54,078 nucleotides of DNA from an archaeon (GCA_043810865.1 JBDRNS010000014.1:1-54078), one strand, 5' to 3'. Counted from the first letter of the stretch, positions 5,262 through 53,901 are shown. The notes: generated from the sequence alone by a model not told the origin. Numbers and translations: made by a program.

Positions 5262-7256
5262 ATGAAAATGAGGGTGATAATTGCTTCAGTGATTTTTTTG
5301 TTTTTGATGGTTTCGACAGTTTCTGCAGAAATAATTTTTGACCAGCAGCCAGGAGAAGTTTACAATCTTGGAGATAATTTTCCTGTTTTTGTGACATTAA
5401 AACCAAATGTTGACGTTACCGGAAATTTTGACATGAACCTCATATGCAACGGGCAGGAAGTTAATTTTTACAAGAATCCTGTTATTATTTCTGCGGGAGA
5501 GGAAAAGAAAATTGAGGCGGCATTAATTCTCAGGAAAGATTTTATCGGGAACCTGACGGGAAATTGCAAAATAAAAGCAATTCTTGGAGGTGATACTGCA
5601 CCAACAAATCAGTTTAAAGTTTCTGACATGGTGGAAATAATTCTCAGGACAGGGAAAACAGAGTTCAATCCAGGAGAAAACATTCTTATCGAGGGAGATG
5701 CCTCAAAAGAAAACAACAAGGGTGTTAATGGTTTTGTTGATTTGGCTGTCATGGGCGAGAATTCAGCGAATCAGACATACAAAGGAACTGTGAATAACGG
5801 CTATTTTGCGATAAATTTTGCATTCCCAAAAGAAACAAAAGCAGGGCTGTATTCCATGATGCTAAATGCTTATGAGAAGGACTCAAACGGGGAAATAACA
5901 AACAAAGGAGTTGCTATTTCAAGCATTACAATAAAACAAGTCCCGACGAGTTTGGAAATAATATTTAACGAGCAGGAAGTTTTACCCGGGACGAACATGG
6001 AAGTCAAGGCAGTTCTCCATGACCAGACAGGGGAGAGCATTCCTTCAAAAGCAATAATAACAGTCAAGGACAAGAACAATAAAATTTATGAGCAAACAGA
6101 AATGCCGACGGATGAGTTCCTTGAATTTCTTACCGCGAACAACCAGCCGCCTTCTGAGTGGACAGTTGTTGCTGTTTCAAACAAGCTTACAAGCCATTCG
6201 ATGTTCAAAGTTATAGCGAAGGAATCAATAAAAACAGAAGTTATTAACAAGACATTAATTATTTATAACGACGGGAATGTGCCTTACAATAAGACACTTC
6301 TTGTGAAAATAGGCGAGGAAAGTTTGAATCTTAATGTTTATCTTCTGGTTGATGAAGTGAAGAAATATATCCTTTCTGCTCCCGACGGAGAATACAGTGT
6401 TGAGATAATAGAAGACGGTGAGACAGCGCTTATTTCCGGCGGTGTGACTCTTACAGGAAAGGCAGTTGACATAAGAGAGTTTAACAGCGCGGGCTTCAAG
6501 AGTTATTATCTTGCATGGATTTTTGTAATCCTTATTCTCGGTTTTGTGGCTTTCATTATTTTCAGGAGAGGATACAGAAGAAGTTTTTTTGGATACATTC
6601 CTTTCAGAAGAAAAAAGGCGGACAAAGTTATAAGCAAAAAAAGTTTCCTGCCTCATCCAAGAAATGCGGCTGAACTATCTCTTTCATTAAGGGGGGACAG
6701 GCAAAACACAAGCATGGTTTGCCTTAAATTAAAGAACTTTGACGAAATACAAAACAGCGACGGAAATGCCGATGAGACAATTAAGAATATAATAGGTGCT
6801 GCCGAGAATGAAAAGGGGTATGTGTATGAAAACAATGACAATTTATTTTTTATTTTTGCTCCTCTTAATACCAGAACATTCCATAATGAAAAAACATCTA
6901 TGAAATTTGCAAAAAACGCGGAAGAAATTTTAACAGAACACAACAAAATGTTCAAGCAGAAAATAGAATTCGGAATATCTGTTGATTATGGCTCGGTAAT
7001 TGCTAAAAAAGAAGGGGACGAAATGAGATTCCTTAGCTTCGGCGATTTGATTCAAAGAATGAAGAAAATAGCTTCAGTTGCTGAAAATGAAGTTTTGCTC
7101 AGCGAGAAAATGAAAGAAAAACTTGCAACTGAAATAAAAACAGAGAGGCATGTTAAAAGCGGAATGAATGTTTATTCTGTTAAGGAAGTAAGAGACAGAG
7201 AAAAGCATAAAAAACTTGCAGAGGATGTTATGAAAAGAATCAATAAGAAAGATTAA
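5262..7256 (+). CDS. Receptor-like membrane protein: extracellular beta-rich domains, one TM, cytoplasmic degenerate cyclase-homology-like domain
   Basis: Signal/anchor MRVIIASVIFLFLMVSTVSA. TM segment YLAWIFVILILGFVAFIIF. The C-terminal ~190 aa aligns by eye to class III cyclase motifs (GDRQNTSMVCLKLKNFD; IEFGISVDYGSVIA; FGDLIQRMKKIAS). Start moved to ATG 5262 because the TATA box ATTTATAAAT (5232-5241) lies inside the longer ORF. Confidence 0.6.
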   Translation: MKMRVIIASVIFLFLMVSTVSAEIIFDQQPGEVYNLGDNFPVFVTLKPNVDVTGNFDMNLICNGQEVNFYKNPVIISAGEEKKIEAALILRKDFIGNLTGNCKIKAILGGDTAPTNQFKVSDMVEIILRTGKTEFNPGENILIEGDASKENNKGVNGFVDLAVMGENSANQTYKGTVNNGYFAINFAFPKETKAGLYSMMLNAYEKDSNGEITNKGVAISSITIKQVPTSLEIIFNEQEVLPGTNMEVKAVLHDQTGESIPSKAIITVKDKNNKIYEQTEMPTDEFLEFLTANNQPPSEWTVVAVSNKLTSHSMFKVIAKESIKTEVINKTLIIYNDGNVPYNKTLLVKIGEESLNLNVYLLVDEVKKYILSAPDGEYSVEIIEDGETALISGGVTLTGKAVDIREFNSAGFKSYYLAWIFVILILGFVAFIIFRRGYRRSFFGYIPFRRKKADKVISKKSFLPHPRNAAELSLSLRGDRQNTSMVCLKLKNFDEIQNSDGNADETIKNIIGAAENEKGYVYENNDNLFFIFAPLNTRTFHNEKTSMKFAKNAEEILTEHNKMFKQKIEFGISVDYGSVIAKKEGDEMRFLSFGDLIQRMKKIASVAENEVLLSEKMKEKLATEIKTERHVKSGMNVYSVKEVRDREKHKKLAEDVMKRINKKD

Positions 7257-9274: not shown

Positions 9275-10552
9275 TTAGTATAAAACAAAAACACAGGATT
9301 CATGATAACACCCTATAGCCCCATTTGTAAACTTTGGATTAAGTACTTTTTCATTAAATACTTCTCTTCCAGTCCATTGTTGATACATCAAATTAAATGA
9401 ACTTTCTTCAAGATTTTCTAATTTTGTAGATAACACTTCAACGTTTGTTAAACTATATTTTTGGGATACTTCATTTAGATTATCTCTTGAAATATAATAA
9501 TTGTTAGTATTATAAAAATTAATTGCTAAATGGACCGCCATTTTATAGGCATCTGAATTGTATATTAAAATAGGCAAATTATTTTGTTCCCTAAGGTTGT
9601 TAATATTGTTGAAAATAACTCCAGTCAAACTTTTGGATTCAAATTGACTCCCAGAATTTTTCACAGAATACCCAAAATAAAGTAAACTTCCCAAGATAAT
9701 AATAAAAACAATAAAGAAGACAAATTTCCAATTACTTTTATTCAACTTCTTTTCTAATTTTTCTTTTTTTTGAGGATAATAAGAAGAAAAAAGTATTTTT
9801 TCATCCTCTTCATCTTTAACATTAAAAGATTCCTCTTTTGTATTACTCTGAAAGTTTAAATGAGATTTTCTCGCTTTATCATAATTTTCCCATGCTTTAT
9901 CATTCTCCCTATCTTCTTTTTTCTTTTTTTCTTTCCGATAATCCCAATAAGGAATACAGGGGTGTCCTCCTTCAGTTTTATAGCTTTTTTCTAAGAATTC
10001 AATATCTTCAAGTTTAGTGCTATTAAACTTAGGCATTCCTGCTAAAGTAGGATTTTTATGTTCTAAGCAGAAGATTAACTCACAAAATTTACATTTACTT
10101 AAATTTTTCTTTTTATCACATTTGTGACGATTACATTCATTTTTAATAATTTTGTCTTTTTCTCTTTTACTTTTTTGCCCTTTTTTAAATAAAGATTCTG
10201 GAATTGCTCCAGTAGTTCCCGAAGGAGGTTCCCAAGAACCCAGTTCTAAATTTGAGTGAGTTTCATGAAATTCTCCTCCGTGCCCAATATGTTGTAAATG
10301 ACTAACTTCATGTGTAGCAGTTTTTCTTATATCATCCTCTGACATTGTTTTTAATTCTGGTTCAGCAATACATATTATTTTTTCTTCATGATGTATGTGT
10401 GCCCTCTCTCCTTTATCAAAGTGATTCTCATAATGATTCCAAAATCTAACTTTTGGATTTTTAGCACCTAAAGAATTTGCTGCTTTTTCTACTTCTTTTA
10501 AGAAGAAACTTTTCTTATACTCCAGTATTGCTTTATCTGGTTTTGATACCAT
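9275..10552 (-). CDS. Multidomain protein: HExxH metalloprotease-like N-domain, AN1-like zinc finger, TM, extracellular CAP/SCP-like domain
   Basis: THEVSHLQHIGHGGEFHE (nt 10298-10312 encode HEVSH). Cys/His cluster CNRHKC-x8-CKFC-x4-CLEH...GGHPC (nt 9956-10135). TM segment WKFVFFIVFIIILGSLLYFGY. The C-terminal ~130 aa resembles YkwD/CAP domains. Confidence 0.5.
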   Translation of the reverse strand: MVSKPDKAILEYKKSFFLKEVEKAANSLGAKNPKVRFWNHYENHFDKGERAHIHHEEKIICIAEPELKTMSEDDIRKTATHEVSHLQHIGHGGEFHETHSNLELGSWEPPSGTTGAIPESLFKKGQKSKREKDKIIKNECNRHKCDKKKNLSKCKFCELIFCLEHKNPTLAGMPKFNSTKLEDIEFLEKSYKTEGGHPCIPYWDYRKEKKKKEDRENDKAWENYDKARKSHLNFQSNTKEESFNVKDEEDEKILFSSYYPQKKEKLEKKLNKSNWKFVFFIVFIIILGSLLYFGYSVKNSGSQFESKSLTGVIFNNINNLREQNNLPILIYNSDAYKMAVHLAINFYNTNNYYISRDNLNEVSQKYSLTNVEVLSTKLENLEESSFNLMYQQWTGREVFNEKVLNPKFTNGAIGCYHESCVFVLY

Positions 10553-15523: not shown

Positions 15524-17008
15524 TCATATTTCATAACTTCCAATCAAATTATCTATTTTTTCATATTCCCTATTTCTTTCAGAAAGCGAATTAACCAAGT
15601 CCTTCAGCCATTTGTTTTTGTCTGCTTCTATTTTTTCCCTGAGCTCATTTTCAGATAAAGACAAATCATAAGTGTGTTCAACCCAGTAATTTCCTATTTC
15701 AAATCTTACGACAATTCCATTGTCCTGCTTTTCTGCTGAGGTTATTTCAACTGAAGAGTTTCCAAACTCATCAAGGAGAATATTTTTTTCCGAGTCAGTC
15801 AGGATGTATTCAGGGATTTCCAGAGTTTTTTCCGGTTTTGATTCATTTAAGGTTTTGTTAATGCTTTCATTTAAAATTTCACTTTCAGTTGTTGCATTAA
15901 CCTCTCCTTGCTGAAGCGAAGTTGTAACTGAACTTATTTCCTGATTATCATAAACCAAAGTTATTTTTAATTCTCCTTCCGGAAAAACAAGATTAAGATT
16001 TGAGAGAATTACAGGTAACTTTTTTTCACTTGTTCCGAGATATTCCTCTCCGAAACCTGTTTCTCCATCTGAATAATCTGTTGTTACTGTAACCTCATTT
16101 CCGTTTAAAATCAGATTAACGTCGCTGTCGGATAAATCAGAGAAAGATGTTTTCACGCTTCCGGAAACAATTTCAGCTGTTTCGCCGTTGCTGAGAGTGT
16201 AAGTAAATGGGTTGTCTCTTGAAGTTCTGCCTTCAATAGTTGTTTCAAGATTCAGAACAGCGTTTCCTGTCAGACCGCGGAATGAATTGAAAATTTTAAT
16301 AACACCTGCTGTAATTATGTTTTCTGTTTCCGGTTGAGGGTTTTCTTCCACAGGTTGTTCAGCAGGAATTGCTTCTGGGTTTGTTTCTTCTGCAGTTGTT
16401 TCAGGAGAAGAATCTTCTGCTGGAATTGTTTCTTCAACAGGTTCTTCTGAAGGAATTATTTCTTCTGTATTTTCTGTGTTTTCCTGAGGAGTAATTTCTT
16501 CCTGGACAGAAGTTTCGTTATTGCTTTCCGACTCATTGCTAATTTCAGTATTGTTTTCAGGAGTTGTTTCATTAGTGCTTGCTTCAGGAATATTTTCTTC
16601 TACAGAACTGGGTTCAGTATTTTCGCTGTCTGAAAAAATTTTCATTGCGAAGTATACTTCTTCAGAGTCCTTTGTTCCTTCAATTCCAAAACCATTACCA
16701 TTTCCAGATAATGAAATTCCTTCAAGATAAAAATCTCCTGAAACAGGAGCTTCAGAAAGAACATCTCCCAAATTATATTCGTATTTTTCTCCGTTAGTTT
16801 CGAAAATTATCTTTGATGATGCAGGAATCAATTCCCCTTCTTTTAAAACAAGGTTCAGATTTCCGTTGAGCGGCTGCCCTTCCTCGTAAACAGAATTAAA
16901 GTTCATCGCAACTTTCCCTGTAATGTTAAAGAAAGGCAGAAAATAAATTAATGAAAATACAACAAATACTCCGAGCAAAACCAAAACAAGTTCTCCTGTT
17001 TTTTTCAT
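15524..17008 (-). CDS. Surface/secreted protein with N-terminal hydrophobic anchor and E/T/P-rich linker
   Basis: MKKTGELVLVLLGVFVVFSLIYF N-terminus and a long acidic low-complexity linker (nt ~16300-16640). Confidence 0.6.
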   Translation of the reverse strand: MKKTGELVLVLLGVFVVFSLIYFLPFFNITGKVAMNFNSVYEEGQPLNGNLNLVLKEGELIPASSKIIFETNGEKYEYNLGDVLSEAPVSGDFYLEGISLSGNGNGFGIEGTKDSEEVYFAMKIFSDSENTEPSSVEENIPEASTNETTPENNTEISNESESNNETSVQEEITPQENTENTEEIIPSEEPVEETIPAEDSSPETTAEETNPEAIPAEQPVEENPQPETENIITAGVIKIFNSFRGLTGNAVLNLETTIEGRTSRDNPFTYTLSNGETAEIVSGSVKTSFSDLSDSDVNLILNGNEVTVTTDYSDGETGFGEEYLGTSEKKLPVILSNLNLVFPEGELKITLVYDNQEISSVTTSLQQGEVNATTESEILNESINKTLNESKPEKTLEIPEYILTDSEKNILLDEFGNSSVEITSAEKQDNGIVVRFEIGNYWVEHTYDLSLSENELREKIEADKNKWLKDLVNSLSERNREYEKIDNLIGSYEI

Positions 17009-18422: not shown

Positions 18423-19625
18423 ATGGGTTTAGTAAAAATAATTAATGATTGGGTTAGAAGACCAAATGAAATGCTCCTCTCTCAAAGAATTAAAGCATCA
18501 AAACCACCAGTAGACAGAAGAGTTTTTTATTTTACCGAGACATTTTATAGTGAGGAATTGAGTGAAGAACAAATTGCTGGAATAAGAAGTGAATTAAAAG
18601 TTGATAGCCCTGTTACTATAATAAATTTAGATAAATTGGATGTTCTTATACACACAACACCTACAGGAGTAGTAATTAACTCTCTTGATGCTGAAAAAGA
18701 TTCTAAACTTGTAAGATTAGTTAGAACTTTATGCTCTCCAAGAGAAATTCCTGTAATTTTTTATGATGGTTCTCCAGGTGAAATAAGAAGAGTTCATAAC
18801 AATTGGAGAGATTTATTGGATTCTGATGAGGTTAAATGGTTTATATCTTATCGTGAGTTAATAGATGAAAAATCTCTAAGATTAAATGAGTTAGTTGATC
18901 AGGAGGGATATGAAAGGACAAGGAGAGCAGATTTATCTCAAGCAAATAAAGAATATGACCCAAGAAAGCTTGAAGCCAAATGCAAAAAAGCATTTGAAAA
19001 ACTTAGAAATTCTAGAAAATATCCCGAAATTGTTGAAAATCGTGAAGATGAAGTTAAAAAACTTATTGAAGAATATAATAAACGACTAGCAGAATATCTT
19101 CTTGCCGGAAGAAGATTGCCAGTTCCATTAGGCTCTATAGATGGGGAGCGTATAAATGTAAGAAAAGGATATTTTATAAGAGAGGGACATTATGCTACCC
19201 AGAATTTTAGGATTTTACCTCAAGAAAAACCCCCTTACTTTGTAAACACACAAAGTCCAGGTCAAGAAGTTAGAGATTATCAAGTACGATGCGCATTTTG
19301 CAATAATTCTATTTTTCCAAATAAACCCAAATCAAAAAGGAATGGAACTAAAAATCTATTTGTCTGGCCATCCTTTTCGTTCAAGGATTATCATAATTTA
19401 TGCAATTCAGAAGGATGTAAGGAACTTTTCTCGGGATTATGTATAGATGCGATGATGAAAGAGATAAAAATAAATAGATGGTATCTTAAGAGAAAATTAG
19501 AATTATATTCTAAATTGGAAGGGAGAAAAATAACTGAAGGGCAAGTTCCCATGTATGAACATATGATTCAAGAAGAAGTTATTAGAAGATTTAAAAAAAT
19601 TTTTGACAGAGAAGTAGTAGAATAA
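18423..19625 (+). CDS. Orphan 400-aa protein with C-terminal Cys cluster
   Basis: VRCAFCNN...YHNLCNSEGCKELFSGLC suggests a zinc-binding module. More AT-rich than its neighbours: about 32% GC in the first 120 nt, versus about 43% in pyrG. Confidence 0.55.
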   Translation: MGLVKIINDWVRRPNEMLLSQRIKASKPPVDRRVFYFTETFYSEELSEEQIAGIRSELKVDSPVTIINLDKLDVLIHTTPTGVVINSLDAEKDSKLVRLVRTLCSPREIPVIFYDGSPGEIRRVHNNWRDLLDSDEVKWFISYRELIDEKSLRLNELVDQEGYERTRRADLSQANKEYDPRKLEAKCKKAFEKLRNSRKYPEIVENREDEVKKLIEEYNKRLAEYLLAGRRLPVPLGSIDGERINVRKGYFIREGHYATQNFRILPQEKPPYFVNTQSPGQEVRDYQVRCAFCNNSIFPNKPKSKRNGTKNLFVWPSFSFKDYHNLCNSEGCKELFSGLCIDAMMKEIKINRWYLKRKLELYSKLEGRKITEGQVPMYEHMIQEEVIRRFKKIFDREVVE

Positions 19626-33573: not shown

Positions 33574-33879
33574 ATGGGACTTAAAAGAATTTTAGCAGGA
33601 GTTGGAATTGTATTAACTTTGTATGGTTGCGCGGCAAAACAAGGAAATGTACCACCATATTCCATACAAGAATATGCACGGGAATATTCGCAAAGAAGAC
33701 AAATGATTGATAGGTTGGTTGAAACAGGACAATTTGATGAAGGCGCAGCTATTGGTTTAGTTTGTTCAGCAACAAGTTACAGGAGAACGGCCTTTGGAAA
33801 TGTAGATGATAGAAGAAAAGAACAGGAATGTCTAGATTGGTTTCATTTTGGAGAATTTAATCCTGGAAACACACCTTAA
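33574..33879 (+). CDS. Small lipoprotein-like protein
   Basis: MGLKRILAGVGIVLTLYGC has a lipobox-like LYGC. Confidence 0.5.
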   Translation: MGLKRILAGVGIVLTLYGCAAKQGNVPPYSIQEYAREYSQRRQMIDRLVETGQFDEGAAIGLVCSATSYRRTAFGNVDDRRKEQECLDWFHFGEFNPGNTP

Positions 33880-34739
33880 ATCAAATTCGGAATTAATCTT
33901 TTCTCTAAAGAAAGAACTTTATTATTATAAGAAACCAGAGTAAAAATTGATCTTGCAGTCATTTCTATTTCATTTTTATAAACAGGAAAGTTTAATTTTT
34001 CATAAATCGCTACGACAGATTTTTTTAATGTTTCAAGAGGACTATGGCTGCGAATTTCTTTTCCTCCTGAAAAATAAGACAGAAGTGTTCTGTATGCAAG
34101 ATTCATTCTATCTTTTCTATCCTGCGTGCTATTAAGCGAGTGAAATTCCCTTAACTGACTTTCAAGAGAGATAATCTCATTTCTTGATTGAATGGTTCTT
34201 TTTTGCAGGGCTAAAACAATATTTCTTATTTCATATGGCTTTGCTTCAAATCCTTTAGCATTATAAAAATCAACAGTTAAATTCTGAAAAGTTCTTGCAG
34301 AGTTTCTTGAAGCAATTCTTCCTTTCCTGTTTATCTCTGATAAAATATAATTAAATGCTAATCCCTCTCTTTCTTTTCTCTCCCTGCTTCCATAAGATGA
34401 AAAATTTGCAATTTGCTCCCTTATATTTTCTATTTGAGAAATTTTATCTTTTATATAACCAAGAAAAATTTTTACAATGCTATTAAGCTGAGTCCGATTC
34501 AAAGTTCTGTTTGCAAATCCTGAAACATAATTCTTAATTATTTGTAGTTTATCTTCTGACTCTGCAAAATATCTAACAATTCTTGGAGTTAATTTATGAT
34601 ATGCAAGAGAAGCAACCCCCTCTTCAGAATTTCGCGCTGACTTCTGTCTATGCCTTCCCAATATTTCTGAATTTCTTTTTTCTGTTTCTTCTTCAATTTC
34701 TCTTAATATCCTTTCTGCAGCATCCATAAAAAAACCCAA
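33876..34739 (-). CDS. Orphan helical protein with apparent internal duplication
   Basis: Two ~65-aa segments beginning GFANRT... and GFEAKP... align loosely. No known motif. Confidence 0.5.
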   Translation of the reverse strand: MGFFMDAAERILREIEEETEKRNSEILGRHRQKSARNSEEGVASLAYHKLTPRIVRYFAESEDKLQIIKNYVSGFANRTLNRTQLNSIVKIFLGYIKDKISQIENIREQIANFSSYGSRERKEREGLAFNYILSEINRKGRIASRNSARTFQNLTVDFYNAKGFEAKPYEIRNIVLALQKRTIQSRNEIISLESQLREFHSLNSTQDRKDRMNLAYRTLLSYFSGGKEIRSHSPLETLKKSVVAIYEKLNFPVYKNEIEMTARSIFTLVSYNNKVLSLEKRLIPNLI

Positions 34740-41807: not shown

Positions 41808-42971
41808 ATGCAAAAAACAAATATGAAGACAAAAAACCTTTTTGGTTTTTTTCTGGCAGTTGCAAGCGTTTTGCTATTAGCTGCAAATGTAAGTGCTAGC
41901 TTCAGCAATGTGCAGGTTACTGTTGACAATGTTGACGTTCTTGACAGTCCGTCAATTGTTGCAGGCGAACTTGTTACATTCAAAGTTTACTTCACATCAA
42001 CTTCTGATGCCACAGATGTCAAGGCAAGAGTTGAAATTGAAGGAAAGAAAACAGACGTTACCGAAACAACTTCTGTCTTTGATGTTGAAGGCGGGCACAG
42101 ATATGTGAAAGTTTTGACTCTCAGAGTTCCTTACGAGCTTTATGATGAAGTAAGCGAGGACGCAGACCTTAATGTAAAAATTTGGGGCGGAGAATCAACA
42201 ACTTATGAAAACTCATTTGCGGTAAGAGTCCAGAGACCATCATACAACGCGGACTTGATGTCAGTAAGTGTCGGACAGACAGTAAATGCTGGAGAAATTT
42301 TTCCAGTTGACGTTGTTTTGAAAAACACAGGTTACAACAAGCTTGATGACTTGTATGTTACTGTGAAAATTCCAGAGCTTGAAATCAAGAAAACAGCTTA
42401 CTTTGGCGACTTGGTTTCTTTGGAAAACGATGACAACGATGACACAATAAGCGGAAGAATTTTGTTGCAGACACCGTTCAGCACAAAGCCGGGTGTTTAT
42501 ACACTTGAAGTTGAAGTCAAAAACAATGACATGACTATGAACGTTGTGAAACAGATTTCAATAGAAAATCATTTCATAAGCAATGTTGTTGTTTCAGGCA
42601 ATGAGCTGATGATTGTCAATCCAACAAACAAGCTGATGGTTTTGAGATTAGTTGCTGATGCGCCCCAGGGTGTTTCAGTAGTTCTAAGCGATGAAGTGGT
42701 TGCTGTTCCGGCTGGTTCAAGCAGAACAGTTATCGTGGATTCAAACAGCTTGGGCGGAACTAAGAGCTATAGCATAAACCTTTTCACAATGGATGGCGAA
42801 CTGGTTGATTCAGTTACTTTGAGCACATCTCAGAGTGCATCTGCCGGCAATGCAGTGGCTGTCTTGACAGTCATACTAACAATAGTATTTTTGGTATTAT
42901 TGGTGGTATTAGTTGTATTGCTTAGAAAGAAACCGGAAAAATCCAGCGAACTGGGTGAAAGCTATTACTAA
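41808..42971 (+). CDS. Candidate S-layer / major surface protein with C-terminal TM anchor
   Basis: Signal peptide, beta-rich T/V/S/D-rich ectodomain, C-terminal AVAVLTVILTIVFLVLLVVLVVLL anchor followed by RKKPEK. Strong promoter and SD. Codon usage looks GC3-richer than that of its neighbours. Confidence 0.6.
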   Translation: MQKTNMKTKNLFGFFLAVASVLLLAANVSASFSNVQVTVDNVDVLDSPSIVAGELVTFKVYFTSTSDATDVKARVEIEGKKTDVTETTSVFDVEGGHRYVKVLTLRVPYELYDEVSEDADLNVKIWGGESTTYENSFAVRVQRPSYNADLMSVSVGQTVNAGEIFPVDVVLKNTGYNKLDDLYVTVKIPELEIKKTAYFGDLVSLENDDNDDTISGRILLQTPFSTKPGVYTLEVEVKNNDMTMNVVKQISIENHFISNVVVSGNELMIVNPTNKLMVLRLVADAPQGVSVVLSDEVVAVPAGSSRTVIVDSNSLGGTKSYSINLFTMDGELVDSVTLSTSQSASAGNAVAVLTVILTIVFLVLLVVLVVLLRKKPEKSSELGESYY

Positions 42972-43713: not shown

Positions 43714-44277
43714 TTATTTCACTTTCAAAAAATTCAATGTCTTTTCCAGAATTCCTGGCTGGATTTTTTCTTCAAAGTGCCCTTTGTTTTTTTCAGTTAC
43801 AATTTTTGCGCTGAGTTCTTTTTTGAAAATTTCTGCGTTTGACTGAGAAACATAAGGGTCGTTATCGGAGAAAATCGCGAGAAAATTTGTGCAGTGCTCC
43901 AAAATTCTGAGAAAATCAATTTTGCTGTTCAGCCAAGGATGCGCGATTTCCATTTCTTCCGGTTCAAGGTTTATGAGATTAAACCATCCCGCGACAAAAA
44001 TGCAACCGCCGATTTTTTTGTTTTTGTGAAGTTTTTCAAGAAACCTGAGAATTGCCTGGCAACCAACACTATGTCCTATAAAATATGTTTCTTCGTCAAC
44101 ATCTTTTACATTTTCTCCCATGTGTTTAACCCATTCCTCTATTTTTGGATGTTCAGAGTTTGGCATGTCAAATGCAATCACTTCAACATTTCTTTTTTCA
44201 AGTTCTTCTTTCAACCAAGGATACCATAATTCCTCGGAATTTCCATCCCACATGTGAATCAAATAAATTTTTTTCAT
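43714..44277 (-). CDS. Alpha/beta serine hydrolase (RBBP9/YdeN-like)
   Basis: GHSVG nucleophile elbow. Size of ~190 aa and N-terminus IYLIHMWDGNSEELWYPWL are typical of the family. Its ATG directly abuts the smc stop. Confidence 0.65.
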   Translation of the reverse strand: MKKIYLIHMWDGNSEELWYPWLKEELEKRNVEVIAFDMPNSEHPKIEEWVKHMGENVKDVDEETYFIGHSVGCQAILRFLEKLHKNKKIGGCIFVAGWFNLINLEPEEMEIAHPWLNSKIDFLRILEHCTNFLAIFSDNDPYVSQSNAEIFKKELSAKIVTEKNKGHFEEKIQPGILEKTLNFLKVK

Positions 44278-47139
44278 TTAAATTTTCAAGCTAACAACTT
44301 TACTTACTCCTTCGTGCATGCTGACTCCGTAGAGATTTGTCGCGTTTGTAATGACTTCGTCATTGTGAGTTATAACTATGTATTGCCCTTTCTTCATATA
44401 TTTTTTCAAAAGTTCTGCAAGACGTTCCGAGTTTCTTTTATCCAGGGCTGCGTCAATTTCGTCGAGAATGTAAAAGCTGTATGGTTTTAGTTCCTGAATT
44501 GCGAAAATCAGCGACAGTGCGACAAGTGTCTGCTCTCCGCCTGAAAGAGATGTTACATCAAAATATTTTCCGTGTCCTGTTTTCACGACAATTCTCACGC
44601 CTGAGCCGGATTCAAACGGCTCTTTCTTATTTTCTATTTCAAGATATGCAATTCCTTTTGAGCTTAAGTCAGAAAAGTTTCGCGAGAAAATTTCACTCAA
44701 AGATTCAAGAGTGTGGAGGAATGTCTTTTTCTTTTTTATGTCAATCTCATGAATTATTCTCATGATTCCTTCTTTTTCTTTTTCAATCACTTCAACTTTC
44801 TCCTTCACTGAATCATATTCTTTTTTTACAGAATCATAAACCTCAAGAGAAAGAAGATTTACAGAGCCGATTCTTATCAGCGCGTCTTTTGCCTGTTCAA
44901 GACGGTTGATTAAGGATTCCCTGCTTGCTTTTATTATTTCAATGTTCTTGAATTCAAAAAAATCTGTTTTCAAATTGTCCATCTCCGCATTTATTCTTGC
45001 CTTGTCAATGCTGAAATTGTTAATTTCCTGTTCAATTGAGTGAATTTTATTTTGGTTTTCAAAAAGTTCTGTTTCGTTCTCGCGGATTTTTTTCTGGAAA
45101 CCGTCGCGTTCAGAGATAAGTTTCCGGAATTTTCTCGTAAGTTCTTCTTCCTGCATTTTCTTGTCTTCCAGAAATTCCTCTTTTTCATTTGCAGAATCCT
45201 CAAGTAAAGAAAGTTCTTCCTGCATTTCTTCCTCGTCTCTTGAGAGCTGTTTTACATTAATTTTTGCCCTCTCCAATTCACGCTGCTTGAAGGAAATTTC
45301 AGAATCAACATTTTTGTCTGTTCTCATTGAGATTTCCTGCATTTCTATTCTCGCTGTTTCATACTTTCTTTCAACATCATAATTTTCATCCATTGCATTT
45401 TCAAGATTTTTTCTTTTTTTCCCAAGTTCGGAAATTTCCTTTTCCAAAAATTCTTTTTTTCCCTGCAGAATTTTTATCTGCTCTTTTTTTTCTTCCATGC
45501 CTGAGAGCTTAACCAAGTCAGATTCTCTTTTTGCAATTTCAGAATTAATCTGCTCGATGTCCTGCTTCAGAATTTCTTTTTTCTTCATAATTTCATTCAG
45601 TTCCCTATCTGATTTTTTAATCTCGCTTTCAAGAATCTTAATTTCCTCTTCTGTTTCAGAATTTATTGAATGAACATGTTCAGGAGTAATTTTTGATTTG
45701 CAGACAGGGCATATGTCAATTTTTTCTATTTTTTCCATAAATTTTTTCTGTTTTTCTATTTCATGCTCATCGGCGTAGGATTTCTTTTCAAATTCTTTTT
45801 CTGATTTTTCTATGCTTTCCAACATTTTCTTTTTTTCTTCCAAAGACAATTGAAGCTCGCGCACTTTTTTTCCGTCTGTTTTTTTGTCAAAAAGCATTTG
45901 TGAAACCTGCGATATTTGCTTTATCAAAAATTCCGACTCATTTGAATAATTCTGCAGAAGTTTTTGCTTGTCGTCAATTCTCTCCCTAATTGATTTCAGT
46001 TCTGTTTTGATAGTGTAAAACCTTTTTCTTTTCTCCTCAAGTTTTTCAAGCTCCTTTTTCTTTTGTTCAATGTCTTTTTGTTTCAGTGTTTCAGGAGCTC
46101 CTTTTTTCAATTCTTTTACAGAAATTTCATTTTCCCTTATCCATAATTCAAGTTCTGTTCTTTTCTTTTGTGTTTCAGAAATTTTGTTTTTGTAGTTTTC
46201 AATTCTTACATCAATACCTGCAATTTCCGCACGGAGGTTCGCTATTTCCTGATTAAGCTTTTCCTGCTCAAAGCCGGTTGATTTTTGAATTGAAGAATTT
46301 ATTGAGATTATTTTTGACTCGCAATCAGAAATATCTTTTCTTATCTCAGCGAGGATTTTTCTCAGTTTTTCAATTTCCTTGTTTTTCTTTGATATTTCCT
46401 CTTCTGTTTTTTTAATCTCTTTTTCTTTTCTCTGCAAATCAAGATTTATTATGCTTGCCTTGAATTTTTTTGTATCCTCCTCCAGCTTCTTGAATCTCAG
46501 TGCCTGCTGTCTTTCTTTTTCAAGATTGTTAAGATAAGATGTTCTTTCCCTCAAAATTGCGGTGATTTCTTTCAGTTTCTCTTCGGTTTTCTGCAATTCC
46601 CTTAAAGATTTTTCTTTTCGCGTTTCATATATTGCAATTCCTGATACCTCCTCAATAACTTTTCTTCTTTCCTCCGGATGCATTTTCACGAAGTTTTGTA
46701 TTTCTCCCTGAAGAATTATGTTAAAACCGTAAGAATCAATTCCTGCCTGAGCAAGCAACGAGAGAATTTCCTGTCTTGTTTTTGTTTCGCCCTGAATCTT
46801 GTAAATGCTCTGCCCGTTTTTTCGCACTATTCTTTTTATTGCAACTTCATCTTTGTCAATTGAAAAAATTCTGTCGCTGTTGTCAAGAACAAGTTCAACG
46901 ATTGCTTCTTTTGCAGGGGACGCGACTTTGCTTCCCAGAAATATTAAATTGCTTGCCTTCGCTGCTCTTATGGATTTTATGCTCAAACGCCCGAGGACAA
47001 AACACAATGCATCTGAAACATTGCTCTTCCCGCTTCCGTTAGGACCGAGGATAACATTGATGTTCGGCGTGAAAATCAGTTCTGTTTTTCTGGGGAAACT
47101 TTTGAAACCGTGCATCACCAATTTTTTAATATAAGCCAT
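44278..47139 (-). CDS. smc: SMC-type chromosome ATPase lacking a hinge, with central CPVC motif
   Basis: N-terminal FKSF...GPNGSGKSNVSDALCFVLG. Q-loop-like LQGEIQNF. C-terminal LSGGEQTLVALSLIFAIQELKPYSFYILDEIDAALD. About 620 aa of continuous coiled coil. CPVC at residues 477-480 of 953 (nt 45700-45711). Confidence 0.85.
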   Translation of the reverse strand: MAYIKKLVMHGFKSFPRKTELIFTPNINVILGPNGSGKSNVSDALCFVLGRLSIKSIRAAKASNLIFLGSKVASPAKEAIVELVLDNSDRIFSIDKDEVAIKRIVRKNGQSIYKIQGETKTRQEILSLLAQAGIDSYGFNIILQGEIQNFVKMHPEERRKVIEEVSGIAIYETRKEKSLRELQKTEEKLKEITAILRERTSYLNNLEKERQQALRFKKLEEDTKKFKASIINLDLQRKEKEIKKTEEEISKKNKEIEKLRKILAEIRKDISDCESKIISINSSIQKSTGFEQEKLNQEIANLRAEIAGIDVRIENYKNKISETQKKRTELELWIRENEISVKELKKGAPETLKQKDIEQKKKELEKLEEKRKRFYTIKTELKSIRERIDDKQKLLQNYSNESEFLIKQISQVSQMLFDKKTDGKKVRELQLSLEEKKKMLESIEKSEKEFEKKSYADEHEIEKQKKFMEKIEKIDICPVCKSKITPEHVHSINSETEEEIKILESEIKKSDRELNEIMKKKEILKQDIEQINSEIAKRESDLVKLSGMEEKKEQIKILQGKKEFLEKEISELGKKRKNLENAMDENYDVERKYETARIEMQEISMRTDKNVDSEISFKQRELERAKINVKQLSRDEEEMQEELSLLEDSANEKEEFLEDKKMQEEELTRKFRKLISERDGFQKKIRENETELFENQNKIHSIEQEINNFSIDKARINAEMDNLKTDFFEFKNIEIIKASRESLINRLEQAKDALIRIGSVNLLSLEVYDSVKKEYDSVKEKVEVIEKEKEGIMRIIHEIDIKKKKTFLHTLESLSEIFSRNFSDLSSKGIAYLEIENKKEPFESGSGVRIVVKTGHGKYFDVTSLSGGEQTLVALSLIFAIQELKPYSFYILDEIDAALDKRNSERLAELLKKYMKKGQYIVITHNDEVITNATNLYGVSMHEGVSKVVSLKI

Positions 47140-47214: not shown

Positions 47215-47886
47215 TCAAAATTCCGCGAGTTTTTTCTGGCTTAATCCGGATTTTGCATTTTTCCAAGTTGCCCAGGATTTTCTGAAAATTCCGTCTTTGT
47301 GATATTTCTTTATGTTGCTTGCAAGAAACTTTGCTGTCAAAGGATCAGAACTGTAACCGGAACCGATTTCATTTCCGTATTTTTCTTTCAGCATTTTCAT
47401 TTCCTCCTCTCTTGTTGATTTTGCAAGTATCGAGGCGGCTGAAACAGAAACATGATTTATATCTGCCTTGTGTTCGCATGAGACATCAAGGTTTGAAAGA
47501 TTTTCTATCTGCATCTTCAAAAAGTCCTGCCACTTTTCCCTGTTAACAGACGGGCAATCAACAAGAACATTTATTTTTTTGAAACCCTTGTTTATTTTGT
47601 TTATAATCCGTGCGCATGCAAATGCCTCAACCTCGTTCAGTTTCACACCGTCCAGGTTTTTTTCATCAATCTCTTCCGGATGAATTATAATTACCTCAAA
47701 TGTCTCTGCTTTTTCACGTATTACTTCAGCGAGAAATTCGCGTCTTTTTTCTGTGAGTTGCTTGCTGTCCTTAACTCCCAGACGCTTAAATTCTTTTTCT
47801 GTTTTTTCGTCAATCAAACATCCGGCGAGAACCATCGGGCCAATCACAGGGCCGCGCCCTGCATCGTCAATTCCAAGTTTTAGCAT
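47215..47886 (-). CDS. rnhB: Ribonuclease HII
   Basis: LGIDDAGRGPVIGPMVLAG N-terminus and downstream DSK/ASI motifs typical of RNase HII. Confidence 0.85.
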   Translation of the reverse strand: MLKLGIDDAGRGPVIGPMVLAGCLIDEKTEKEFKRLGVKDSKQLTEKRREFLAEVIREKAETFEVIIIHPEEIDEKNLDGVKLNEVEAFACARIINKINKGFKKINVLVDCPSVNREKWQDFLKMQIENLSNLDVSCEHKADINHVSVSAASILAKSTREEEMKMLKEKYGNEIGSGYSSDPLTAKFLASNIKKYHKDGIFRKSWATWKNAKSGLSQKKLAEF

Positions 47887-52033: not shown

Positions 52034-52453
52034 ATGGTGAGGATAAATCTGTTAAATCCAGAAAAGCTCTCGGATCAACACCTGATTGCGGAATATAATG
52101 AAATTTTGATGTTGCTCGGCCACGTTAAGAAATTCCCTGAGATAAGAAATCAACCAAAGATGTACACTTTAGGAAAAGGGCATATTAATTTTTTTAAAGA
52201 CAAACTTTTCTATCTGAAGAAAAGACATGAAAAAATAAAGAAAGAGATGAAAAGGCGCGGTTTCAAGACAAATAAGAAAATTTCATTAAATGAGTTTGGA
52301 AGCAAGCATAAAAAACCTTGGCTCCCAACAAAAGAAGATTTCCTAATTATTAAAAAAAGAATCAAAAAACGAATAGGACAAAAGCCGAATTTTTACAGGC
52401 ATTATGGAGAAAAGAAATCAAAGAATTTTTTCCACAAGTTAATGGATGACTGA
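52034..52453 (+). CDS. Pyrimidine-dimer DNA glycosylase (T4 endonuclease V / DenV family)
   Basis: MVRINLLNPEKLSDQHLIAEYNE...GKGHINFFKDKLFYLKKRHEKIKKEMKRRGF parallels T4 DenV MTRINL...LADQHLMAEYRE...GAGHVTFFYDKLEFLRKR, including the catalytic Glu in AEYxE. Confidence 0.8.
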   Translation: MVRINLLNPEKLSDQHLIAEYNEILMLLGHVKKFPEIRNQPKMYTLGKGHINFFKDKLFYLKKRHEKIKKEMKRRGFKTNKKISLNEFGSKHKKPWLPTKEDFLIIKKRIKKRIGQKPNFYRHYGEKKSKNFFHKLMDD

Positions 52454-53136: not shown

Positions 53137-53901
53137 ATGAAAAAGAGAGATGAAGGTTTTCTTAATGTAATTAGTATAAAAAATAAAATTATTAAATCAG
53201 ACGCAGATAATTTTCTTAAAAAAATCCCCAATAATTTTATTGATTTAGTTGTAACCGATCCTCCTTATGGTATTGGGATAAGTTCTTGGGATCATAAAGC
53301 CCCAACAGGATGGTGTAGTGAAATACCCAGAATTTTAAAAGAAAATGGTTCATTACTAGTTTTTTGTGGCAAACAAAATAGATTTGAAGTTGAAAAAGCC
53401 CTTAGAGAATCTGGATTATATTTTTGGCAAGAATTAATCTGGATTTATGGTAATGGAGGGATAACTAGAAAAAGTTCATATAACGGACATCATGAACCGA
53501 TTCTTTGGTTTGTTAAAGATCAAACAAAATTTAAATTTAATATTAAAGGAAATTTATGGATAGATACTTGGACTGTTATAGATAGAGCAAGACCACAAAG
53601 AAATTTCAAAAAAGATAAAAAGATTCATCCTACTCAAAAAGCTTTAGAGGTAGTTAAAAAATTAATAGAGGAGCATTCAAATCCAGACGACATAGTCCTT
53701 GATTGTTTCATGGGTTCAGGAACAACAGCAGTCGCTTGTAAGCAATTAGGGAGAAACTTTATAGGGTTTGAAATTTCACCAGAATATTGTAAAATAGCAA
53801 ACAAAAGACTTGCACAGAATACTTTAAACCAACTAAAATCGGAGGGCATTTCTCCTCCCAATCCTAAAGGAATGGGTATCCAAAATGCAAAACTTATATG
53901 A
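53137..53901 (+). CDS. Beta-class DNA methyltransferase (N6-adenine or N4-cytosine)
   Basis: Motif IV VVTDPPYGI precedes motif I CFMGSGTTAVAC, the circular-permuted beta order of the N4/N6 MTase family. Confidence 0.8.
   Translation: MKKRDEGFLNVISIKNKIIKSDADNFLKKIPNNFIDLVVTDPPYGIGISSWDHKAPTGWCSEIPRILKENGSLLVFCGKQNRFEVEKALRESGLYFWQELIWIYGNGGITRKSSYNGHHEPILWFVKDQTKFKFNIKGNLWIDTWTVIDRARPQRNFKKDKKIHPTQKALEVVKKLIEEHSNPDDIVLDCFMGSGTTAVACKQLGRNFIGFEISPEYCKIANKRLAQNTLNQLKSEGISPPNPKGMGIQNAKLI

Follow-up and report, generated by a model that had tools for sequence, protein, structure and literature searches.

The hinge is among the defining parts of SMC proteins, and it has been credited with DNA binding and with the role of a DNA gate during loading. 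In Rad50, four cysteines from two chains bind one zinc ion. The two elements have been exchanged experimentally: a Bacillus subtilis chimera in which the hinge is replaced by the zinc hook of Pyrococcus furiosus Rad50, Smc(Zh), supports normal growth, so that an SMC protein with a hook in place of its hinge can work, and this result was an earlier indication that the dimerisation domain need not have a particular fold; the activity of the chimera still depends on the length of the arms (Burmann et al. 2017, PMC5344682). The reverse exchange also works, since fission-yeast Rad50 with the MukB hinge is functional (PMC6969161). Among natural proteins, the archaeal SMC-superfamily members ASRP, ClsN (coalescin) and Sph carry a zinc-hook motif at the apex of the coiled coil and have non-SMC heads (PMC9389158), while a hinge-less SMC of marine Actinobacteria, known from metagenomes, is explicitly described as being without CXXC (Sussfeld et al. 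2025, PMC12153180). No published description of a natural hook-bearing SMC was found in the full-text literature, access to which was incomplete. The present work concerns a gene at positions 44278..47139, on the minus strand, of a 54,078-nucleotide stretch of archaeal DNA (GCA_043810865.1, JBDRNS010000014.1:1-54078), which as a whole is referred to here as the window. The gene starts with ATG and comprises 953 codons and a stop, and we consider it probable that its product serves a Pacearchaeota-like DPANN archaeon as housekeeping, condensin-type SMC and that a CxxC zinc hook of the Rad50 type has taken the place of its hinge of about 170 residues.

The heads of the protein are of the SMC type rather than the Rad50 type. 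In a Pfam scan the SMC_N model matches across residues 3-946 with an expectation value (E) of 6.8e-48, and the NCBIfam models TIGR02169 (SMC_prok_A) and TIGR02168 score 511.3 and 502.2 bits, whereas the Rad50 equivalog models give 60-117 bits against cut-offs of 700-1087, SbcC gives 31 bits, and the ASRP model NF045487, with a cut-off of 300, gives 115.7 bits, far less than the SMC models. Both SMC scores lie under their own equivalog cut-offs (729.4 for TIGR02169 and 567.35 for TIGR02168), a shortfall that is probably due to the substitution of the hook for the hinge. The Pfam model SbcC_Walker_B reaches only 13 bits (E 0.12), and the Walker B and D-loop region is that of an SMC. A search of the PDB places the Pyrococcus Smc head 5xei on top (1.9e-102), followed by bacterial Smc and then by eukaryotic SMC2, SMC3, SMC1 and SMC4, with Rad50 heads appearing first at 3e-13. 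When the full-length AlphaFold model, whose head has an alpha/beta fold and an N-terminal half with a predicted local distance difference test (pLDDT) score of about 80-90, is compared by Foldseek with the Pyrococcus Smc heads 4i99 and 5xns, the template-modelling (TM) scores are 0.87-0.91 (0.90-0.91 for the P. furiosus structure 4i99). Profile, PDB and structural comparisons thus all favour SMC over Rad50 or SbcC as the family to which the heads belong.

The head is encoded at the two ends of the gene, all parts of which are read on the minus strand. The N-terminal half (residues 1-168, 46636..47139), which aligns with the Pyrococcus Smc head (residues 1-199 and beyond), holds the Walker A motif GPNGSGKSN at residues 32-40 (nucleotides 47020-47046). 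The C-terminal half, including the stop (residues 826-953, 44278..44664), is matched by the C-terminal head of Pyrococcus Smc, in an alignment that covers residues 768-952, and holds the signature LSGGE at residues 865-869 (nucleotides 44533-44547) and the Walker B and D-loop segment FYILDEIDAALD at residues 889-900 (nucleotides 44440-44475). The reading of the locus made beforehand from the DNA letters (the sequence-only reading) had proposed a 953-residue open reading frame (ORF) with the SMC head motifs GPNGSGKSN, LSGGEQTLVALSLIFAIQ and FYILDEIDAALD; all of these are present, with core residues that do not vary within the family. Among 43 aligned family members, the invariant positions are G32, N34, G35, G37, K38, S39 and N40 in Walker A, together with L865, S866, G867, G868, E869, F889, Y890, D893, E894, D896, L899, D900 and H925 in the C-terminal head; Q144 is invariant as well, and it is probably the Q-loop residue, as H925 is probably the H-loop histidine. 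Because the key residues of the ATP site do not vary, the protein should be active as an ATPase.

No hinge could be detected between these heads. The Pfam model SMC_hinge (PF06470) has no match in the window SMC at E<=10, and a local hidden Markov model of the hinge, built from 98 related hinge-bearing SMCs and run with --max, has no match at E<=10 in any hook-type protein. The same Pfam model scores 1e-29 to 1e-33 in the nearest hinge-bearing relatives (proteins P0150, P0154, P0158 and P0166), and the absence of the hinge is therefore not an artefact of poor sensitivity. In an alignment with the hinge-type relative P0154, the arms are colinear, and residues ~490-660 of P0154, which comprise the hinge and the proximal coil, correspond to residues ~462-492 of the window SMC; the C-terminal arm is colinear with those of hinge-type SMCs from about window residue 478-494 onward. 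A hook segment of about 30 residues thus stands in for about 170 residues of hinge, and the 187-residue difference in length is attributed, from the alignment, to this replacement. The AlphaFold model likewise contains no globular middle domain. The sequence-only reading had described an uninterrupted coiled coil without a hinge; the absence of the hinge is borne out, and the strict continuity of the coil is not, since the model shows breaks of the kind found in SMC arms.

What occupies the place of the hinge is a short apex, IDICPVCKSKITPEH (residues 474-488, 45676..45720), that contains the motif CPVC at residues 477-480 (nucleotides 45700-45711; the region 45670-45741, minus strand, translates as FMEKIEKIDICPVCKSKITPEHVH). 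The protein has four cysteines (46, 273, 477 and 480), and CPVC is its only CxxC; C477 lies at 0.50 of the 953-residue length, so that the midpoint position expected from the letters of the sequence is confirmed by translation. Exactly one CxxC, always of the form CP[LVIT]C, is found at 0.497-0.514 of the length in 120 of the 120 close homologues listed (65-72% identity), and the motif is therefore not a product of chance. Conservation in relatives extends much further than this set: C477, P478 and C480 are invariant in the 43-sequence alignment, which reaches down to 38% identity; at T485 and H488 conservation is 90% or more. Over the approximately 425 residues of coiled coil from G289 to A714, the two cysteines and the proline are the only invariant residues, and the mean conservation of the hook (0.70) exceeds that of the surrounding coil (0.46-0.57).

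The likeness of this segment to the zinc hook of Rad50 goes beyond the CxxC motif. The Pfam model Rad50_zn_hook (PF04423) matches 25 of 25 family members when 94-residue segments centred on the motif are used (best E 1.6e-7), and an hhalign comparison with the P. furiosus Rad50 hook gives a probability of 90.5% and an E of 1.4e-6. The two hooks align with equal spacing (CPVCKSKITPEH in the window SMC, CPVCGRELTDEH in P. furiosus Rad50) and share the pattern C-P-V-C-x3-[I/L]-T-x-E-H, which is more than a pair of cysteines alone would supply. In the AlphaFold model (mean pLDDT 80 at full length and 89.5 for the hook fragment), residues 474-485 form the sole non-helical stretch between the helices 423-473 and 486-585, at the tip of the hairpin, and when the hook fragment is compared by Foldseek with 350,542 PDB chains, ranks 1 and 2 are taken by 1l8d, the Rad50 zinc hook (TM 0.83 and 0.77, root-mean-square deviation 2.5 A). 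Taken together, these comparisons lead us to infer that the window SMC would bind Zn2+ and dimerise through the hook.

The arms that join the heads to the apex have the geometry of SMC arms. DSSP assignments on the AlphaFold model delimit an N-terminal coiled-coil strand of about 305 residues (residues 169-473, 45721..46635) made up of the helices 169-203, 210-287, 290-344, 356-415 and 423-473, with SMC-like breaks at 204-209, 288-289, 345-355 and 416-422, and a C-terminal strand (residues 489-825, 44665..45675) in which the helices 486-585, 589-603, 612-730, 740-757 and 763-825 are separated by breaks at 586-588, 604-611, 731-739 and 758-762. The breaks 345-355 and 604-611 are equidistant from the apex in the model and for this reason probably form a paired discontinuity. 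A helix usually rises by 0.15 nm per residue, and the roughly 305 helical residues per strand therefore correspond to an arm of about 45 nm, which is close to the 47-49 nm quoted for the arm of bacterial Smc. Walker A and the CxxC lie 445-446 residues apart in 115 of 131 proteins, and 386 residues separate the CxxC from LSGGE in 118 of 135; arm length is thus held within 1-2 residues across the hook family, although the conservation of the arm sequence is only 0.57. The necks are conserved like the heads, at 0.81 for residues 169-215 and 0.73 for residues 756-825. In Smc-ScpA, the neck is the place at which the N-terminal domain of the kleisin binds, and the conservation that has been kept at this site makes it plausible that a kleisin partner has been retained.

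The family to which the protein belongs is large, and it occupies the locus of an ordinary smc gene. A scan of species-representative genomes found hook SMCs in 76 loci of 75 assemblies, nearly all of them named Pacearchaeota, Woesearchaeota or Nanoarchaeota; these taxon names are the labels given by the depositors, and the count is to be read as at least 75 assemblies. In a library of representatives at 50% identity, 36 of the top 150 clusters are of the hook type. Full-length members have 946-1023 residues and reach down to 38% identity to the window SMC, and public records name members of the family "chromosome segregation protein SMC"; a look-up of contigs encoding exactly the window SMC returned no record. 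One smc copy was detected per assembly. An apparent second copy or paralogue in CAZOAN01 (loci L034 and L035) was rejected, as the two contigs are 100% identical and hence redundant. Since the nearest relatives bear the names Pacearchaeota, Nanoarchaeota or Woesearchaeota, the source of the window, which has a G+C content of about 35%, is a DPANN archaeon, and probably a Pacearchaeota-like one.

In a neighbour-joining tree of the heads, computed from 73 full-length proteins and 427 columns without outgroups and therefore arbitrarily rooted, all hook forms and some mini forms of about 800 residues fall into one clan with a bootstrap value of 99/100, and this clan adjoins hinge-type SMCs, two of which are named Woesearchaeota. 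The gene order points in the same direction. The gene rnhB, for RNase HII (47215..47886, minus strand; RNase_HII 1.8e-48), lies 75 nucleotides upstream of smc in the window, and RNase HII is encoded directly upstream and in the same orientation in 63 of 79 related loci, with a median gap of 68 nucleotides; downstream, about 50 loci carry genes for a secreted protein of about 400 residues and for a DnaG-like protein. The rnhB-smc order is found around the hinge-type SMCs P0154 (L080) and P0155 (L083) and also around P0146, the most distant hook form, and it is common to hinge, hook and mini SMCs (L080, L081, L083, L085 and L086). One type of locus therefore accommodates three architectures, with a hinge at about 1100-1200 residues, with a hook at about 950 and, in the mini form, at about 800. 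Because the rnhB-smc locus is shared and the clan stands beside hinge-type SMCs in the head tree, the hook family appears to be the orthologue of ordinary SMC, that is, the housekeeping SMC with its hinge exchanged for a hook, and the simplest reading is that a single replacement of the hinge by the hook took place in the housekeeping SMC of an ancestor of the lineage. The conserved order and the gap of about 70 nucleotides in most hook loci also suggest that rnhB and smc are co-transcribed, perhaps reflecting a functional link between RNase HII and SMC.

Several relatives depart from the standard hook form. Mini SMCs of about 730-840 residues, which some Pacearchaeota carry and which have SMC heads but neither hinge nor CxxC, are represented by P0140, P0142, P0143, P0148, P0205, P0234, P0238 and P0262; at least four of them (P0140, P0142, P0143 and P0148) lie inside the clan of hook SMCs in the head tree, and P0278 (PIU75690.1, of the P0140 cluster) occupies an rnhB-smc locus (L085:6279-8693). 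By their appearance, the mini SMCs are hook forms that have been reduced still further. At the other extreme of length, P0123 (1479 residues) is a hook SMC with an intein of about 525 residues, which contains a LAGLIDADG homing endonuclease and interrupts the Walker A region at approximately query residue 22, on its C-terminal side; P0129 (1483 residues) resembles it in length and alignment coordinates, and several relatives of about 1660-1810 residues, each aligning in three stretches, may also contain inteins. P0158 (943 residues) and P0166 (963 residues) bear a hinge, at about residues 407-532, and have arms shorter by about 90 residues per strand; as short-arm SMCs that occur in nature, they can be likened to the engineered mini-Smc variants (PMC5344682). 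Full-length archaeal hook SMCs of 59-64% identity to the window SMC occur in two contigs labelled as bacterial, L049 (DATJPO010000036.1, Omnitrophota bacterium) and L074 (DAIQOR010000001.1, bacterium), and in L014 and L045, labelled Iainarchaeum / Diapherotrites. The bacterial labels look like the result of mis-binned contigs or wrong taxa.

If the hook is what its sequence and predicted fold indicate, the working of the complex may be outlined as follows. Each chain would double back to form an antiparallel coiled coil, about 45 nm long, that carries the ATPase head at one end and the CPVC loop at the opposite tip, and two chains would share one Zn2+ through four cysteines, as in the Rad50 hook, to give a permanent homodimer joined at the tips of the arms in the way that the hinge joins an ordinary SMC. 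The arms would align into a rod, ATP would drive the engagement and disengagement of the heads as it does in Smc, and a kleisin, bound at the conserved neck, would probably bridge neck and cap, so that the complex could entrap, hold or extrude chromosomal DNA. In this scheme, both the partners and the role in the cell are ones that we infer.

A number of observations weigh against the interpretation of the protein as a hook-bearing housekeeping SMC. The hook segment of the window SMC itself scores 21.4 bits with Rad50_zn_hook (E 2.3e-4), slightly under the Pfam gathering score of 24.3. A profile search of the PDB with the alignment of the 94-residue hook segment gives weak matches (0.24 for the BRCA1 RING and E 0.29 for 1l8d), which are too weak to be used alone, and the assignment of the hook therefore rests on Pfam, hhalign and Foldseek. 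The Foldseek E for 1l8d is only 0.026, a modest value that is to be expected because a helical hairpin carries little information. The head tree, a neighbour-joining tree on 427 columns with an arbitrary root, does not give the order from hinge to hook to mini. Finally, the 54-kb window and, in 79 loci, the surroundings of the gene up to a distance of 10 kb yielded neither a kleisin (ScpA) nor ScpB.

The search for partners was broader than this last result. Among 60 scanned ORFs of the window, Pfam detects no member of the ScpA, ScpB, Rad50 or Mre11/Metallophos families. When ScpA of B. subtilis, Geobacillus and Streptococcus pneumoniae and the N-terminal domain of ScpA of T. onnurineus, the last recovered from PDB alignments, were compared with all ORFs of the window and of 86 loci by local hmmsearch and phmmer, no match better than E 0.2 was obtained, and PDB searches with unannotated ORFs just upstream of two hinge-type relatives did not identify ScpA. 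The absence of an adjacent scpA or scpB, to which the sequence-only reading had drawn attention, is thus real, but it is uninformative, because the hinge-bearing relatives also lack an adjacent scpA.

The role of a protein with the heads of one family and the apex of another can be read in more than one way. It might do the work of Rad50 and, possibly by contacts from one complex to another, tether sister chromatids or the ends of DNA during repair; in a reduced DPANN genome it may then replace or supplement Rad50-Mre11 instead of acting on the chromosome in the manner of a condensin. The Rad50-type sequence and predicted fold of the hook segment, the tight linkage to rnhB, a replication and repair gene, and the lack of a nearby kleisin in a window that also holds no Rad50 or Mre11 are all compatible with such a job, which we nevertheless regard as very unlikely: the heads, including the Walker B and D-loop, are far closer to Smc than to Rad50, the gene stands at the canonical SMC locus of related archaea, and the linkage to rnhB predates the hook, because the hinge forms share it. 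No adjacent Mre11-like phosphoesterase occurs in any locus inspected, and none is present in the gene calls of L081, L082, L085 and L086. It is also conceivable that the CxxC is no site of zinc-mediated dimerisation at all and instead stabilises the hairpin turn, by a disulfide, an intramolecular metal or packing, with the dimer held by the arms or heads only. Relatives of about 780-840 residues at the same locus have neither hinge nor CxxC, so that the lineage can apparently do without a dedicated dimerisation domain, and only two cysteines per chain are available. Two per chain is, however, exactly the arrangement of Rad50; the conserved pattern CP.C...T.EH matches the Rad50 hook beyond the cysteines, and strict invariance down to 38% identity within a fast-evolving coil argues for a specific chemical role. 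A purely structural motif therefore seems to us a most improbable explanation.

A protein of this kind could in addition be the SMC-like component of a defence or mobile-element system, such as Lamassu LmuB, Wadjet JetC or MADS mad3, whose PADLOC models match the window SMC (mad3 at 167 bits, LmuB at 85 bits and JetC at 46 bits). The similarity is that of the head domain, the mad3 match covering residues 3-260 against a model of 374 positions; the surrounding genes have housekeeping functions and include no partner of a defence system, and the single copy with conserved synteny in at least 75 assemblies also speaks against this reading. Given head-only matches and housekeeping neighbours, membership of a defence system was rejected as having next to no likelihood, and a viral origin was likewise rejected, IMG/VR viral contigs containing no relatives of the hook SMC. 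A further idea combines features of SMC and Rad50: the hook may have been captured from an archaeal Rad50, and the hook SMC, with the mini SMC as the more extreme case, may act as a kleisin-free, two-subunit clamp of the Rad50 kind that serves both chromosome organisation and the tethering of breaks in a minimal genome. This is speculative and rather unlikely, yet if it held, SMC function in nature would strictly require neither of two features, the hinge and the tripartite ring formed with a kleisin. The housekeeping SMC with its hinge exchanged for a hook, retaining a kleisin as a plausible partner, remains the reading that we prefer.

The other genes of the window are for the most part those of a normal chromosome, and they include genes for aminoacyl-tRNA synthetases, CTP synthase, PEP synthase and a DnaG-like Toprim protein. 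The smc gene lies between rnhB and an ORF for a serine hydrolase (43714..44277, minus strand; Ser_hydrolase 1.5e-23), whose ATG directly abuts the smc stop; this arrangement, too, had been proposed from the letters of the sequence, and the ORF coordinates and Pfam matches support it. The serine hydrolase has no homologue in the 79 related loci, and as it is not a conserved neighbour it is probably unrelated to smc in function; one Ser_hydrolase gene lies upstream of rnhB in L085. A scan for sigma-70 promoters and terminators stayed at background level, the model being one that does not apply to archaea. At 41808-42971 (plus strand), a protein of 387 residues with a signal-like N-terminus, a hydrophobic C-terminus and no Pfam match is encoded; it is conserved at about 1-7 kb from smc in 51 of the 79 loci, its counterparts having faint NPCBM_assoc or Ig-like matches, and it may be a surface or S-layer-type protein. 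Near the end of the window lie a T4 endonuclease V-type pyrimidine-dimer DNA glycosylase (52034-52453, plus strand; Pyr_excise 2.3e-16) and, as its neighbour, an N6/N4 DNA methylase (53137-53901, plus strand; 1.7e-46). Large ORFs of 283-664 residues without a Pfam match are found at 5262-7256 (plus), 33876-34727 (minus), 9275-10552 (minus), 15524-17008 (minus) and 18423-19625 (plus), the one of 664 residues having only a sub-threshold MG2 domain (28.6 bits); they are typical DPANN proteins without an assigned function.

The significance of the family lies in the finding that an exchange of hinge for hook, so far made only in the laboratory, would occur in nature in a conserved form. The exchange has been kept for a long time, because the family has diverged as far as 38% identity with the length of the arms fixed, and the hook SMC is the only SMC copy detected in the assemblies that carry it. 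The family accordingly offers an independent evolutionary test of which features of SMC are essential, a compact protein for structural and single-molecule work, and, in the hook itself, a clear shared character that marks a DPANN lineage. It will be missed by surveys that collect SMCs by means of the hinge, as was done previously (PMC5344682).

The protein can be compared with several described systems. With canonical Smc, as in Smc-ScpAB and in Pyrococcus, the window SMC shares the sequence and fold of the head, including Walker A, signature, Walker B and D-loop, the conserved neck, arms of about 300 residues per strand with their characteristic breaks, and a locus in common with the hinge-bearing SMCs of related DPANN archaea; it differs in that canonical Smc has a hinge, where the window SMC has a hook of about 30 residues, and no kleisin partner was identified for it in the loci searched. 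With the hook of Rad50 and SbcC (PF04423, 1L8D) it shares an antiparallel coiled coil with CPxC at its tip, while its heads, Walker B and D-loop included, are those of an SMC and no Mre11 lies nearby. The ASRP proteins differ from it in the same respect, since its heads are those of a true SMC, its gene stands at an SMC locus and its score with the ASRP model is less than half of the cut-off. The hinge-less SMC of the Actinobacteria likewise has SMC-type heads and arms without a hinge, but it is bacterial, and it is nearer to the DPANN mini form than to the hook form. Smc(Zh) has the same design, and its dependence on arm length is paralleled by the fixed arm length of the natural family; that chimera is a laboratory construct in a bacterium that possesses ScpAB, whereas the family described here is natural, ancient and widespread in DPANN archaea.

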